Shown: piece after piece, positions 7,301 through 60,274 of the stretch
How the letters are laid out: every line of letters begins with the position of its first letter
Position numbering within the stretch: the stretch's first letter is position 1
NCBI RefSeq assembly: GCF_028641065.1
Contig: NC_073405.1
Span: 15,376,001 to 15,440,000 of the forward strand
Direction of reading: 5' to 3'
DNA length: 64,000 nucleotides
Origin: Leucoraja erinacea
Taxonomy: Eukaryota
Made by a program: the position numbers and the translations under genes
The notes under the pieces: generated by a model
Told to the model about the DNA's origin: nothing
Database searches by the model: none
Seen by the model: the letters and a program-made list of their open reading frames with translations, nothing else

Positions 7301-10300
7301 AATCTATCATTATCATAGAACATAGAACAGTACAGTACATGAACAGGACATTTGGCCCACAATGTCTGTGCCAGACATGATGCCAAAATCATCACATCTA
7401 CCTGCACATAACCCATATCCGTCCATTCCCTGCATATCTATAGGCCTATCCAAAAGGCATGAGACACCACTAGTTTCCTCCTCCCTGATTCTCAGTCTGA
7501 TGAAACGTCACCTATTTCTTTGCTCCAGAGATGCTGCCTGACCCACTGAGTTACTCCAGCATTTCATATCTATCTATGGTGTAAACCAGCATCTGCAGTT
7601 CCTTCTAATGCAATCCTCCCGAATAGTTTCCCTGCCAGTGACGTGAGGCTCACTGGCCTATAATCCCTGGATTCTCCCCTCTTCCCTTCTTAAATAAAGG
7701 AACAATATTCCGAATTCTGTATTGAAGATACTCAATAACCAAGTCTTCACAGACAAGAGAAATCTAACGAATTGTGAAAATATTGGTGAAAAAAAAAAAT
7801 CTGAGTCCTTAAAAACTGATCGCTCATCTCTGAAAAGAATGGCCATTCCTGACAATCTCAAGAAAATGACCATTGTGGCCAACCATAAACCAGGAGACAA
7901 ATCTGACTTTGGCAACCACAGAAGGTTTTTTAATTCTTTTATTCATTTATTCCATGTAATGTATGATCTGCATCTTTTTGAACAGTCTTCTAACCATCAC
8001 TAGTAGATCCTCCTAGAAAGGCAGTATGCTCATCTTCATGTTGCTTTCTGTATATCTGGCTGCCATCTTACACTTCTCCTGAGATTCCCTCGGATATAAG
8101 CATTGTGTGGGCAATAAATCTAATCTTTGTTGTTTCTGGGCTTAAAAAAAACTCATGACCAAGGTTATTCTCAACCCTCAGGTTTGTACATTTGCTTAGT
8201 TTGCAAATGGTTTACAAAGGGTTGTAAATTCCTTCAACGTTTCTGATAAAGAACTTCTGTCATTGAATGTCAACAAGACAAAGGTCTTACAATAACATCC
8301 TCTAGGCAAAATGAAATATCTTGTGTCATTTAAAGAGATGGATCTGGAAGATGTGGAACACTTTCTGTACCTCAACAGGCACTGCTCCCTAGACTGGCAA
8401 CAATTAAAAAATCTAGTAGTGGGTCAACTGCACTGGCGCTGCTTTCAACAAGCTGTGTCAAATGTCTTCAAAAATGTACATCTTTGAGAGTCAATGAAGG
8501 TCTTGGGTTATGTGAGTTTGATGCGGACTGACTATTTTGCTGCAGAGAAACTTGAACCATCTACCCATAACAAATTAAACCTTTGAGAGCTACCACCAAT
8601 GTGGCTGAATCAAATCCTGGATTTAAATGAGAAGATCACCTGCAAAGACCCTGTGTAAAACTGTGTTCATCAGCAATGAAGCCTTGCTTTTGAAAAAATA
8701 AGGTCTGGTGGATTACTGTGTCCAGATGCCCAAGATCCTCTCCCCTTCCATGTTCCCCTCAGCTCTATCCATATATCAATTGCCAGGCTTTGCCCTGCCC
8801 CCACCTCTTTTCCAGCTTTCTGTAAATGAAAATAAAAATATTCATAGACTAACCTCTGTGCCACGTGTAGTGAAATCCAGATGGTTGTGTCTGTATTGCT
8901 GTATCTTTTACAGCCACTTTGGATAGTTTTAACTTCATATATCTCACTGAATAGGAGGACTCTGTGCAAGTTGCTAGATTGGATTGGTCTGGTGTTGGGG
9001 GTGAGGATGTTGAGTAGAAAGTGTTATCAGAATAATCAGTTCTTGACTCCTCTTCAGATGACTGCTGAAAATGTGATTCATCCTGATCCATTTTTACCGA
9101 TGGCACTTCACAGTTAGAAGTTTCAAAGTCTTCTGAGTATTTGGAACACATGGTGCTCTGATCATCTACTTCTAATTGGTCTGGCACATTCCCTGGAGAT
9201 TTTCTTCCCTTCTTTGATACATTGGAATCTTCATTTAAACATTCAGAGATTTCACTTCCGGTTGCATCAAAATCTGCCCAGATCTCATTTTCCAAGTTAT
9301 TTGCATTTTTCTCTCTTGAAAGTTTAGTGGGTTGGGAACATGAACTGATGACCTCATTTGTCATGTTTAACCTTGAATTGTAGGAAACTGACTGTTTACT
9401 TTGATCACCCGAGTGCTGACTCTCTTCATTCTTTAAAAAAAAAACAGATCAATAAACTGTCTTTATAAAACATTCCTAAACACTGAAGTACATATAAGTA
9501 ACTAGTGATATAAACATATTACTCAATTAGTTGCTTAAACATTAATAGCATATACTATATCTCCTTGATCAGCCAAAAGATCCATAAGTCAATTTACTTG
9601 TCTCAATTTCCTTTATGGTTTCTCAAATTTACCAGAACTGTAAGTCCATCTGTGACAATGGCTCCGTTTTCTCTCCCTAATAGCACTGCCAGACTAGAAC
9701 ACTACATTTTGCAGCTTTTACATCCCTTTGTTTGTTTTCTCACTCTCATATTGCTCATATATCACAGATTTTATGGTCCTTTGTTCAGATTATCTCTCTC
9801 TCTAACCATCCCCATTAATCCATCAACCAGAATTATAGATCATCCCCTTGCAATGGTATTATACTACATTTCTCCTGTCCACACCTGCACCACGTTTTCT
9901 GCAACTTAAAACCAACATGCTTTCCCTCATTCTCAATTCTGACCAAGGGTTTTTGACCTACAAAGTTAACTGTTTCTCATTCTACTAATGCTACGAGACC
10001 TATTGCGTGTTTCCAGCATTTTCTATTTTTACTCAGATAATTAAAGTTAGTTTAAAGGTAGAGAAACAAAAATTACAACGTCCTCAGAAAATGTAGTGTT
10101 GATATGAATTATGTGTAAAAATCCAATCGAGTCCGGTAATTACACTAGTCATTTCCAACGGTGTGGTCACCAAGCGTGATTGACTGCAGAATTACCCATT
10201 CATCTCTTTCTGATTTTGGGACGATCATTACATGTAGTAAAAAAAACTCCAGTCCACTTAACACTGTGTAATATTGGTAAATGTATTCAAGAGAGAGTTA

Positions 10301-59420: not shown

Positions 59421-60274
59421 TCCTCGTACAATGAAGAAAGGATTTAACCCCATTGGTTAAATCAGTCATGATCATATTGAATGTCTGAAGGGCCGAATGG
59501 CCTCCTCCTGTGCCTATTTTTCTATGTTTCTGCTAGGACAATACAGTTGTTACTTTAGCAGATATTGGACTTTGTTTCAGGAACTGTGCACTCCATTGCT
59601 GAAAACTATATTTTGGATAATTTTGTGCAATTATAAATTTTCTGTTGGAGCAGAATGAAAGGGGTAAAAATATGTTTCTCTGTAGGAGCCACTTCAGTTA
59701 TTTCCTATTTATTGCAGTTTGTCATGTGACCCTCAATTGCAGTGTTGGTAGGGAACTGATTGGTTCAGAGGCGAGTGGAACTGCTAGATATGCTAGTAAT
59801 CATGGGTCAAGTGATGCAGTTAATTTATCCTGTGCATGAAGCTAAACTGTCAGTAGCACCGGAAAAAAGAGATACATTTTGCAGAATATTGTTGACTGAT
59901 GAAATGCTGTCTCGTGGGTGGTTTAATCTGAGCAGTTATGATTGTATTGATGCCAGTTTTGTATCCATTTATGAAAAGTTTCAAATCTTCTGGGTAGTTG
60001 GCAAAAGACCAAAAGCAAGTGTGTGGTGTGGTTGCTGTGGCACAATTTCATCCTCTCTTTACAAGGCAAGTCTATAGATTTGTGGAAATAAGGGACTGCA
60101 GGTGCTGGTTTACAACAGACATAAAGTGCTTGAGCAACTCAGTGGGTTGGGCAGCATCTCCAGAGAACACTGGTAGGTGACGTTTCAGGCCTGGGCCTTT
60201 CTGCAGACTCATCATGGAGGGAGGGGAGAGGAAAAAAAGCTGGAAAAGGGGAGGGGCAGGACAAAGCCTGGTAG

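Follow-up and report, generated by a model that had tools for sequence, protein, structure and literature searches.

The 64-kb window analyzed here, a stretch of 64,000 nucleotides from Leucoraja erinacea, contains many copies of a short repeat that bears a hammerhead motif and also ends a Penelope-like element (PLE), which raises the question of whether the repeats are SINE-like units in their own right, products of ribozyme cleavage, or remains of PLE insertions. The repeats are most probably decaying, truncated PLE insertions in which reverse transcription halted early. The arrangement has already been described in other animals, and the anatomy is that of published PLE insertions.

Copy Number and Density of the Repeat

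An earlier note on this DNA had claimed at least 12 copies of the unit, and blastn and alignment located it at all 12 named sites. A profile search, for which 17 of the 18 aligned arms were used to build the model, returned 25 matches at E ≤ 1. The 24 matches with E ≤ 0.011 form 19 loci covering 3.4% of the window, and one (43007, E 0.32) was discarded; the reversed window gave no profile match. Rows used for building the model necessarily match the profile, while 9939, 22941, 25250, 33925, 43999, and 51800 are independent of it. Thirteen of the 19 loci are single-armed and six are head-to-head pairs (Table 1), and the profile search detected no tandem array among them. Repeats of 100–230 nt, the size given in the earlier note, are real, but several copies carry long upstream leaders, and head-to-head pairs rather than single units occupy four named sites (20520, 22770, 24935, and 55779).

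The density of 19 loci in 64 kb corresponds to hundreds of copies per megabase. In public data, 141,964 and 120,708 contigs aligned to the repeat (contig depths are not equivalent to copy number), and the module accounts for 0.17–0.18% of public RNA reads. No further loci were matched when metagenome, viral, and prokaryote-genome contigs were scanned with sequence patterns. A literature search on Penelope elements and hammerheads in skates and sharks, with Repbase, Dfam, and subscription journals outside its range, found no paper on this skate repeat family, which the supplements of Li 2026 may include.

In a single-cell run, the reads had an 85:15 strand skew of unassignable direction, which may represent internal priming on A-rich sequence. 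Places with T>C and A>G changes numbered 19 versus 9 and 16 versus 12 in RNA, and at least 11 versus at least 11 and at least 10 versus at least 9 in DNA. A-to-I editing was not accepted as an explanation because every change type was higher in RNA and the DNA counts are minimum values.

Table 1. Repeat copies and PLE remnants in the window, with flanking TSDs. Loci are named in the text by approximate position.
Feature	Position	Strand	Description	TSD
5′-truncated Penelope-like element	23640..24715	+	last third of RT/GIY-YIG ORF (tblastn)	23625–23639 / 24716–24730
Older PLE 3′ end	20100..20795	+	endonuclease C-terminus and long pyrimidine-rich UTR (UTR extent by eye)	
Single module	46548..46643	+	starts at −3; short 3′ end; complete core 46551–46578, lacking stem I partner; host an LTR-retrotransposon remnant; RNase H-like domain downstream	46538–46547 / 46644–46653
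Head-to-head pair	22770..23000	.	tail-bearing arm on − (22770–22901), complete core 22869–22896; ~35 nt filler; decayed arm on +, ~22937–23000	in simple repeat (TSD test)
Head-to-head pair	24930..25133	.	centre 25059; tail-bearing arm on −, complete core, stem II with two G.U pairs; shorter arm on +	none (tested)
Head-to-head pair	20518..20723	.	in 3′ UTR of older PLE; tail-bearing + arm from C3, A6 changed; inverted arm from +11	20504–20517 / 20724–20736, one-base gap
Head-to-head pair	55779..55984	.	centre 55857; tail-bearing arm +, short arm −; both cores broken	55765–55778 / 55985–55997, one-base gap
Head-to-head pair	19459..19547	.	no spacer, no ribozyme; both arms from +66; tail on + arm	19443–19458 / 19548–19563, exact 16 bp
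Decayed pair	33845..33973	.	ribozyme-bearing short arm on −; + arm approximately tail alone; weak match, score 39	none (tested)
Single module	20796..20876	−	start ~−2; early end ~+78; G12 changed	none seen
Module, 77-nt leader	21241..21411	−	short 3′ end; A6 and G12 changed	21412–21421 / 21231–21240
Module with tail	44644..44782	−	start −3 to −7; G12 changed	44783–44796 / 44630–44643
Module with tail	7477..7605	+	short leader; stem II deleted	
Module, pyrimidine-rich leader	58550..58706	+	5′ end not fixed; short 3′ end; G12 changed	
Module with tail, pyrimidine-rich leader	60084..60280	−	5′ end not fixed; A6 changed; two double changes in stem II	
Older-subfamily copy	9830..10057	+	~100 nt leader in common with 42830	
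Older-subfamily copy with leader	42773..43000	−	blastn, profile search	
Fragment, 3′ half and tail only	25223..25272	−	profile E 0.011	
Decayed fragment	43985..44055	+	profile E 0.008	
Decayed copy	51767..51856	−	profile E 1e-9	

The PLE in the Window

The element at 23640–24715 retains an ORF remnant with two frameshifts and one stop, followed by a pyrimidine-rich 3′ UTR of ~80 nt and then the terminal module with the short 3′ end. It matches RT and GIY-YIG proteins of 816 and 827 aa (tblastn, E 7e-51 and 6e-49), and 23640–24545 is collinear with residues 514–812 of the 816-aa RVT_1 and GIY-YIG protein; the Pfam GIY-YIG match (E 0.0012) falls below the cut-off. The RT core is truncated away from this copy, and other RT fragments are located at 11744–11983 and 163–423. 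In translation, a Cx4CxxC linker motif (CNCRKCYTC in the linker frame) precedes the endonuclease, whose frame contains CxxC/H/H; the Neptune clade is marked by such a linker together with CCHH. A Cx2-5CxxC linker marks the Neptune/Nematis type (Craig 2021, bioRxiv 2021.04.23.441226/PMC8557442) and is common to Neptune, Nematis, and Naiad (Craig 2021, PMC8557442). Based on its linker and endonuclease motifs, the element appears to be a Neptune-type RT/GIY-YIG element. The claim that the repeat unit is a Penelope terminus stands in that the module ends this element, although the module copy there (24630) lacks C3–A6.

An older PLE 3′ end, identified by translation and by a blastn match to this element at 20187–20261, carries the insertion at 20520 and directly adjoins the 20795 copy. 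The window contains neither a full-length element nor a tandem pLTR. A 3′ splice site could be present at the ribozyme edge, as in the D. virilis Penelope, since the pyrimidine tract and AG fit; a splice donor is not kept across the three ORF ends.

The Hammerhead Motif and Its Decay

The consensus in our alignments agrees with the hammerhead described earlier, including the extra base and the palindromic ACGU in place of stem III. At every core position, at the extra base, at G10.1-C11.1, and in the palindromic stem III, the majority letters agree with the published minimal consensus. Judged by these alignments, the terminal module appears to match the minimal type I hammerhead of PLEs, with the motif broken in most copies. 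A hammerhead search of the kind proposed in the earlier note, using a relaxed minimal-hammerhead descriptor, found three complete motifs (46551 on +, 25058 on −, and 22896 on −); 100 dinucleotide shuffles gave 0.2 on average and 2 at most. Rfam reported no hammerhead family even at E ≤ 5, with just sub-threshold miRNA-hairpin matches on the palindromes. The complete cores at 22770 and 24935 are located in calreticulin intron 1, antisense to the gene, a number too small for interpretation.

The whole core of 11 bases is kept in three of 15 arms, in keeping with the prior description of most copies as core-mutated. Core letters are kept no better than the flank (143/165 versus 725/870, p = 0.36), and by this comparison, which the earlier note had itself named, its suggestion of structural constraint on the genomic copies fails. 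CpG decay strikes G12: altered letters there make up 20% and 16% of the RNA reads and, in two DNA runs, 12% of the contig depth. Stem II (4 bp) is 87% paired and has been lost from 7490, and stem I (2 bp) is paired in 60% of cells. A15.1/U16.1 is kept in 15 of 15 arms and C15.2/G16.2 in 10, with U.G in three. Double changes affect two of the four stem II pairs, given which the source elements may be under constraint.

The motif could be non-functional even in the source elements, with the module kept as a signal for RT binding or initiation. Such a reading is compatible with truncation, and we regard it as unlikely, if the most credible of the alternatives. It is favored by the short and poorly paired stem I, by an RNAalifold result in which another fold buries the GUC site, by a drop in the stem II probability of 46548 from 0.92 to 0.04 once downstream sequence is added, and by single-strand folds that give no z-score beyond −1.5 among eight sequences. 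In the green anole, ribozyme-dead mutants insert unimpaired in vitro, but the anole motif does cleave in the presence of its protein (Frangieh 2024, PMC11167929). The agreement of the majority letters with the published minimal consensus throughout and the invariant A15.1/U16.1 also argue against a non-functional motif.

Head-to-Head Pairs

The tail is confined to one arm in all six head-to-head pairs, and a one-sided tail is likewise drawn for inverted-copy PLE insertions (Craig 2021, Fig. 2, PMC8557442; Arkhipova 2013, PMC3846280). In three of the five pairs tested, the closest relative of the inverted arm is its own partner; in the other two, both decayed, the partner arm ranks 12 and 14. 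The junction points differ among the pairs (−1, −1, +1/+11, +66, and filler), and opposite-strand joints occur at many positions in the DNA contigs of two runs. This partner kinship, together with the varied junctions and opposite-strand joints, indicates that the pairs form at insertion and do not descend from one palindromic master.

Spacers of zero or one base occur at the pair junctions, and the centre base derives from the short arm in 55779 and from the tail arm in 24935. Two primed strands suit the spacers, the centre bases, and the tail-only 33925 arm better than a fold-back does, although two-strand priming rests on four junctions, each of which could be explained by a single mutation or a later deletion. 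A PLE protein cleaves and extends both DNA strands in vitro (Frangieh 2024, PMC11167929).

Termini and Target Sites

Seven of 10 tested boundaries have a TSD score ≥ 10, which is reached by 0.45% of 1985 random pairs, and the TSDs range from 10 to 16 bp. No TSD was found at 24935 and 33925 among these 10 boundaries, and 7490, 20795, 42830, 51800, 58610, and 60090 have no convincing TSD above the null. For 46548, no clean empty-site joint is present among the joints listed in public data, so its TSD is unconfirmed by an empty site; one contig per DNA run skips 46499–46668 with unknown letters between. The 3′ ends fall at two sites ~33 nt apart (~+92 to +98 or +121 to +131), and in public reads and contigs, loose ends occur at the short 3′ end and extend into the tail. 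In vitro work has linked a PLE tail of 30–40 nt to a pair of RT start sites (Frangieh 2024, PMC11167929). The earlier description of a PLE-type minimal type I hammerhead in several subfamilies with TSDs is supported. Its proposal that the TSDs make the unit SINE-like is not supported, as the mini-copies share their type of TSD and their 3′ end with the truncated ORF-bearing copy of 1.08 kb.

The 5′ starts vary from +66 to −986. Eight of the 15 ribozyme-reaching loci start between −7 and +1, that is, within 8 nt, and seven start further upstream, up to −986, with 58610 and 60090 judged by pyrimidine content alone; in four further loci the start is shorter or undefined. The leader match of 9830 and 42830 was reached by none of 200 shuffles. 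Plain random truncation does not predict the clustering at −7 to +1 (crude binomial P of 6e-4 to 3e-8, under assumed stop rates and for a post hoc slot). The upstream edge of the ribozyme is a natural self-complementary spot, TCAG.T.CTGA, but the clustered-start loci 46548 and 44650 count against the truncation reading since both are single units, whose starts a self-complementary junction fails to explain.

The clustered starts could instead mark a SINE-like non-autonomous family, in which a short RNA beginning at the upstream edge of the ribozyme, through a start site of its own or through processing there, is copied in trans by the Penelope protein beside ordinary truncated copies; we consider this improbable. 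The sequence from −5 to +2 fits an initiator consensus, and the very high abundance in public contigs and RNA reads would also suit such an RNA, as would the finding that cis-acting pLTRs are mobilisable in trans (Arkhipova 2013, PMC3846280). Loose read ends upstream of C3 in public reads agree solely on the final TCAGT, but the loose-end peak at C3 is expected under either reading because the reference was used without a leader. Against this reading, seven loci have longer leaders, the subfamily letters of 24935 match the ORF-bearing copy, and public reads have no shared RNA start or end point, a weak test with fragmented cDNA. ARAGORN found no tRNA-like head, and Rfam found no Pol III head on the sense strand at the gathering score. 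The best sense-strand Pol III box pair has at least 5 mismatches in 13 of 13 arms, and box-like motifs occur solely antisense, with an A box ~20 nt inside the short end and a B box 52 nt further. A bacterial promoter scan, based on a model irrelevant to skate, found nothing.

A more elaborate form of the SINE reading, which appears somewhat more doubtful still, supposes a hammerhead-headed RNA of 100–130 nt that is mobilised by Neptune, forms dual-strand-primed pairs, and makes up a few percent of skate genomes as a Penelope-dependent SINE. The antisense box pair would then be a Pol III promoter, and transcription of a pair would yield a long hairpin RNA with its end at the T run in the other arm. 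To our knowledge, an antisense promoter has been proposed for PLEs and never shown. If such a short protein-dependent RNA exists, it would be an unambiguous example of a SINE driven by Penelope.

It is very unlikely that the repeats are a retrozyme-like replicon in which ribozyme-cut monomers are circularised and reinserted. The hammerhead motif itself and a few head-to-tail joints (46644 back to 46552) in two RNA reads of one run could be read in this way, and non-LTR retrozymes linked to pLTRs have been reported in one chondrichthyan (Li 2026, preprint, bioRxiv 2026.07.22.740005). However, the listed head-to-tail joints also occur in DNA contigs and lie off the cleavage site, none of the 19 loci is a tandem array, and the motif belongs to the minimal PLE type, whereas classical non-LTR retrozymes have canonical type I ribozymes and occur as tandem units (Cervera 2020, PMC7229834). 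None of 25 arms starts at the cleavage site (+29). The earlier note had proposed looking in RNA-seq for ends and junctions at the GUC; two public libraries have no pile-up of RNA ends there, a weak test with fragmented cDNA, and the head-to-tail joints listed lie elsewhere. Core decay, the lack of cleavage-site starts, and the lack of an RNA-end pile-up thus favor truncated PLE copies over a retrozyme.

A palindromic MITE-like DNA transposon, suggested by the long inverted arms at six of 19 loci, several with TSDs, is refuted by unequal arms with a one-sided tail and by variable centres, and also conflicts with the 13 single-armed loci, the varying TSD length (10 to 16), and the identity of the sequence as the terminus of an RT-coding element.

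Proposed Origin of the Repeats

If the repeats are truncated PLE insertions, the GIY-YIG endonuclease of the element would nick the target, as published PLE work implies, and reverse transcription would start internally in the RNA, at one or the other of two sites, giving the short end or the tail end. Reverse transcription would usually halt within 100–200 nt, so that the pLTR end alone is laid down. We infer that a head-to-head pair is likely the product of priming on both nicked strands, one per start site, and that the two cDNAs likely join at a self-complementary spot; the TCAG.T.CTGA sequence likely contributes to the favored 5′ end. Any role of the hammerhead would be confined to source elements, in tandem transcripts, acting as a dimer or with the protein of the element. 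The scattered copies would decay neutrally, and nearly all are predicted to be cleavage-incompetent. What these repeats add is most likely little: an already known PLE anatomy and ribozyme motif, now at very high density in the skate genome. The sample size suits tests of how inverted PLE ends and tails form and of the ribozyme edge as a template start.

Comparison with Known Systems

Minimal PLE hammerheads have been reported in the Neptune, Poseidon, and Xena elements of fishes, coelacanth, and Xenopus. The skate motif shares with the published form the core, the extra base between 9 and 10.1, G10.1-C11.1, and the palindromic 15.2-16.2, as well as the occurrence of mostly single dispersed motifs with some opposite-strand pairs. 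Its stem II has 4 bp compared to 7–8 in Schistosoma, and its stem I has 2 bp, as in the D. virilis Penelope. No shark or skate was found in the searched supplement files of the minimal-hammerhead survey.

Poseidon_Ac of the green anole likewise has a hammerhead ~100 nt upstream of two tail-bounding genomic 3′ ends and no RNA ends at the cleavage site (Frangieh 2024, PMC11167929). It differs in belonging to the Poseidon clade, with an ORF that starts in stem II, whereas the skate endonuclease has a Neptune-type linker and the skate module has no established ORF start. Non-LTR retrozymes are also short, non-coding, hammerhead-bearing, PLE-related, and dispersed as monomers, but their defining feature is tandem units that each contain a complete ribozyme (Cervera 2020, PMC7229834; Li 2026), and the skate window has none. 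Short head-to-tail joints occur in public contigs.

The skate repeats share with canonical endonuclease-positive PLEs the 5′ truncation and an adjacent inverted copy with a junction palindrome (Arkhipova 2013, PMC3846280; Craig 2021, PMC8557442), along with an optional tail of 30–40 nt on one end, short TSDs, and a GIY-YIG at the C terminus that has a Cx2-5CxxC linker. Unlike canonical PLEs, the skate units are cut to the last 100–200 nt, number 19 in 64 kb, and in about half of the loci start at the upstream edge of the ribozyme.

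The repeat family and its parent element

The 12 sites named in an earlier note all match the module, a repeat unit of 100–230 nt that forms the 3′-terminal part of a Penelope-like element (PLE) and carries a minimal hammerhead motif. A profile search of the window identified 24 hits (E ≤ 0.011; one weaker hit was dropped) in 19 loci, spanning 2197 bases or 3.4% of the window, and the reversed window, used as a control, gave 0 hits. Module coordinates take hammerhead C3 as +1, which places the predicted cleavage site between +28 and +29, and loci are named by approximate window position. 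In public data, one copy was matched at 82% likeness by 141,964 and 120,708 contigs (two DNA runs) and by 31,872 of 17.6 million and 12,164 of 7.3 million reads (two RNA runs); thus, the family is very large and extends beyond one species label.

The parent, a 5′-truncated RT/GIY-YIG Penelope at 23640–24715, matches, over 23640–24545 and in three frames, residues 514–812 of a protein of 816 aa that combines an RT domain with a C-terminal GIY-YIG domain (E 7e-51). Its endonuclease piece is most similar to two proteins named as Leucoraja erinacea (81% and 77%), which makes a skate or a near relative the probable source of the window. The parent contains a Cx2-5CxxC linker, a trait that Craig (2021) assigns to Neptune and Nematis but not to Penelope/Poseidon, and the putative assignment of the parent as “Neptune-type” rests on this motif. 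A pyrimidine-rich UTR of about 80 nt precedes the terminal module, and the whole 1.08 kb is bounded by a 15-bp TSD with one mismatch. The earlier claim that the unit ends this element is borne out by the module at its end, but C3–A6 has been lost in that copy.

At its extreme 5′ end (23640–23700), the parent has some 30 bases duplicated in tandem. The stretch from ORF stop to ribozyme (24545–24626) opens with GT, has a pyrimidine content of 87%, and ends with CAG in most copies; by analogy with D. virilis Penelope, it could be a candidate pLTR intron. Nested insertions are found at 20100–20900, where an older PLE hosts the 20520 pair in its 3′ UTR; the 20795 copy adjoins the CTGAAG of that older element in the opposite direction, perhaps as an insertion into its decayed ribozyme.

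Anatomy of the insertions

The modules have two groups of 3′ ends, at about +92 to +98 (short end) and +121 to +131 (with an extra stretch, the tail), in addition to two early ends near +78, and public reads and contigs have the identical short end and tail. Frangieh 2024 (PMC11167929) links such a PLE tail of 30–40 nt to a pair of internal RT start sites and shows cutting and extension of both strands of the DNA by the PLE protein. Six loci (19483, 20520, 22770, 24935, 33925, and 55779) are head-to-head pairs of inverted copies (arms), and in every pair just one arm bears the tail, which is the pattern described for PLEs by Arkhipova 2013 (PMC3846280) and Craig 2021. Of 10 boundaries tested for TSDs, 7 have one of 10–16 bp (null 0.45%), and a search at six other copies found none above null. 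The 5′ ends range from +66 (19483, without any ribozyme) through −77 (21245) to −986 (24630, the terminal module of the parent), and none of 25 arms starts at +29, the first base past the would-be cleavage site. The 9939 and 42830 copies belong to an older subfamily with a common 100-nt leader upstream of the ribozyme (matched by 0 of 200 shuffles). Most likely, these loci represent truncated PLE insertions. The TSDs had been taken as a sign of a SINE-like unit; alone they are insufficient, as the ORF-bearing parent is TSD-bounded too.

5′-end clustering and pair junctions

Among the 15 loci extending as far as the ribozyme, eight (46548, 44650, 20520, 20795, 22770, 24935, 33925, and 55779) start between −7 and +1, a clustering with P from 6e-4 to 3e-8 in a crude binomial calculation under assumed stop rates and with the slot picked post hoc. 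Plain truncation does not account for it. The clustering arises in part from a self-complementary sequence, TCAG.T.CTGA (−5 to +4), which forms the exact centre of the 24935 and 55779 pairs. Spacers are one base at these two pairs and absent at 19483, so a fold-back loop would not fit. In 55779 it is the short arm that supplies the centre base, in 24935 the tail arm, and each arm of 33925 has sequence absent from the other. The pairs may have formed when both nicked target strands were primed, one per RT start site, and the two cDNAs would then have been joined through microhomology. This two-strand priming resembles twin priming in L1. A literature search on Penelope twin priming returned no account of PLE junctions among titles and the beginnings of abstracts. 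The alternative, proposed by Arkhipova 2013 (PMC3846280), is self-priming on an antisense template, and four junctions are too few to settle between it and two-strand priming.

The single-armed 46548 and 44650 copies need a cause other than a pair junction. Their edge may be a transcript start, at an initiator-like sequence, or an RT stop. It may also be a splice acceptor, as D. virilis Penelope has one at the same place (Schostak 2008, PMC2377424). These single-armed starts leave room for a SINE-like template.

The hammerhead motif

As the earlier note had read it, the majority sequence comprises the core, an extra base, a stem II of 4 bp, GAAA, palindromic ACGU, and GUC or GUU, which are traits listed for minimal PLE hammerheads by Cervera and De la Pena 2014 (PMC4209133). 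A descriptor search found three complete motifs compared with 0.2 in shuffles, and an Rfam search of the window detected no hammerhead motifs. Among the 15 arms scored out of 18 aligned rows (three are truncated within the core or too decayed), all 11 core bases are intact in 22770, 46548, and 24935R, the minus-strand arm of the 24935 pair. Letters are kept at 143/165 in the core and 725/870 in 58 downstream columns (p = 0.36); the core is no better kept than its flank, so among the copies the earlier note's own test for structural constraint is not passed. In public data, CpG transitions are the motif changes with the best support among the differences listed. G12, the general base of the hammerhead (PMC6155905), differs in 20% and 16% of the RNA reads (two runs) and in 12% of the contig depth. 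Pairing in stem II stands at 87%, and two of its four pairs show double changes. The covariation score is reached by 2/500 shuffles and the doubly-changed-pair count by 42/500, with relatedness not controlled, so constraint in the source elements is only plausible.

The fold preferred by RNAalifold buries the GUC site, and adding downstream sequence lowers the predicted stem II probability from 0.92 to 0.04 in 46548 and from 0.74 to 0.54 in 22770. Head-to-head copies have predicted long hairpins (−46 to −148 kcal/mol), which would lock the motif. PLE hammerheads cleave as dimers, according to PMC4209133 and a review (PMC6765202). No place with many RNA molecule ends was among those listed in two RNA runs, a weak test for such libraries, and this is in line with anole data.

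Downstream of the ribozyme, a possible second helix (46599–46633 and equivalents; 8 pairs, 86% of cells paired), whose 5′ strand can alternatively pair with the tail, is a candidate RT-binding structure. RNA reads of the second subfamily have a majority G for A at stem II position 11.4 (loose ends before 46584) and DNA contigs differ; one variant or locus may be over-expressed.

Antisense Pol III box-like words

On the opposite strand, young copies carry words resembling the Pol III A-box and B-box consensus, with one mismatch each, separated by 52 nt and lying some 20 nt inward of the short end. Resamples did as well in 0 (21245), 3 (46548), and 50 (22770) of 1500, these being 3 of 13 arms so tested, post hoc. 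A true Pol III promoter is unlikely because the B-like word corresponds to stem II in reverse, neither word occurs in the older subfamily, an ARAGORN search found nothing, and the test was post hoc.

Genomic setting

The window is vertebrate DNA with 41% G+C and encodes a PRY-SPRY piece and two genes. Four module copies lie within 2 kb upstream of the start of the calreticulin gene, and another four in intron 1 of that gene.

Coordinates of features in the window; inverted-repeat elements, unrelated to the module, are in order of coordinates
Feature	Coordinates	Strand	Remarks
Other decayed PLE pieces	163–423, 11744–11983, 20187–20261, 54905–55276, 61521–61584		
Antisense box pair	21243–21334	+	read on +
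Antisense box pair	20796–20874, 20599–20690, 46551–46643		antisense
DUF4614 (C19orf44-like) gene	8850–18150	−	head to head with calreticulin
Calreticulin gene	22519–41060	+	head to head with DUF4614
Decayed LTR-retrotransposon pol remnant	45950–48540		RNase H-like domain; host of 46548 copy
Inverted repeat	14729–14845		117-bp palindrome
Inverted repeat	27977–28532		556-bp unit, perfect 25-bp terminal inverted repeats
Inverted repeat	32462–32517		small hairpin
Tc1-like transposase piece	34763–36371		split by LINE remnant
Another LINE RT frame	62204–63739		324 aa; near right end

Comparison with known systems

Tests for a non-LTR retrozyme, following Cervera 2020 (PMC7229834) and the Li 2026 preprint, failed; in the latter, non-LTR retrozymes already include one chondrichthyan. 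A sense-strand Pol III head is absent. A search of literature listings, with repeat databases outside its scope, returned no account of this module family. Judged by the features tested, the loci behave as, and belong among, insertion products of endonuclease-positive PLEs that carry minimal hammerheads. The family is real, known in kind, and composed mostly of dead copies, and its 5′-end clustering and junction pattern are its features of note.
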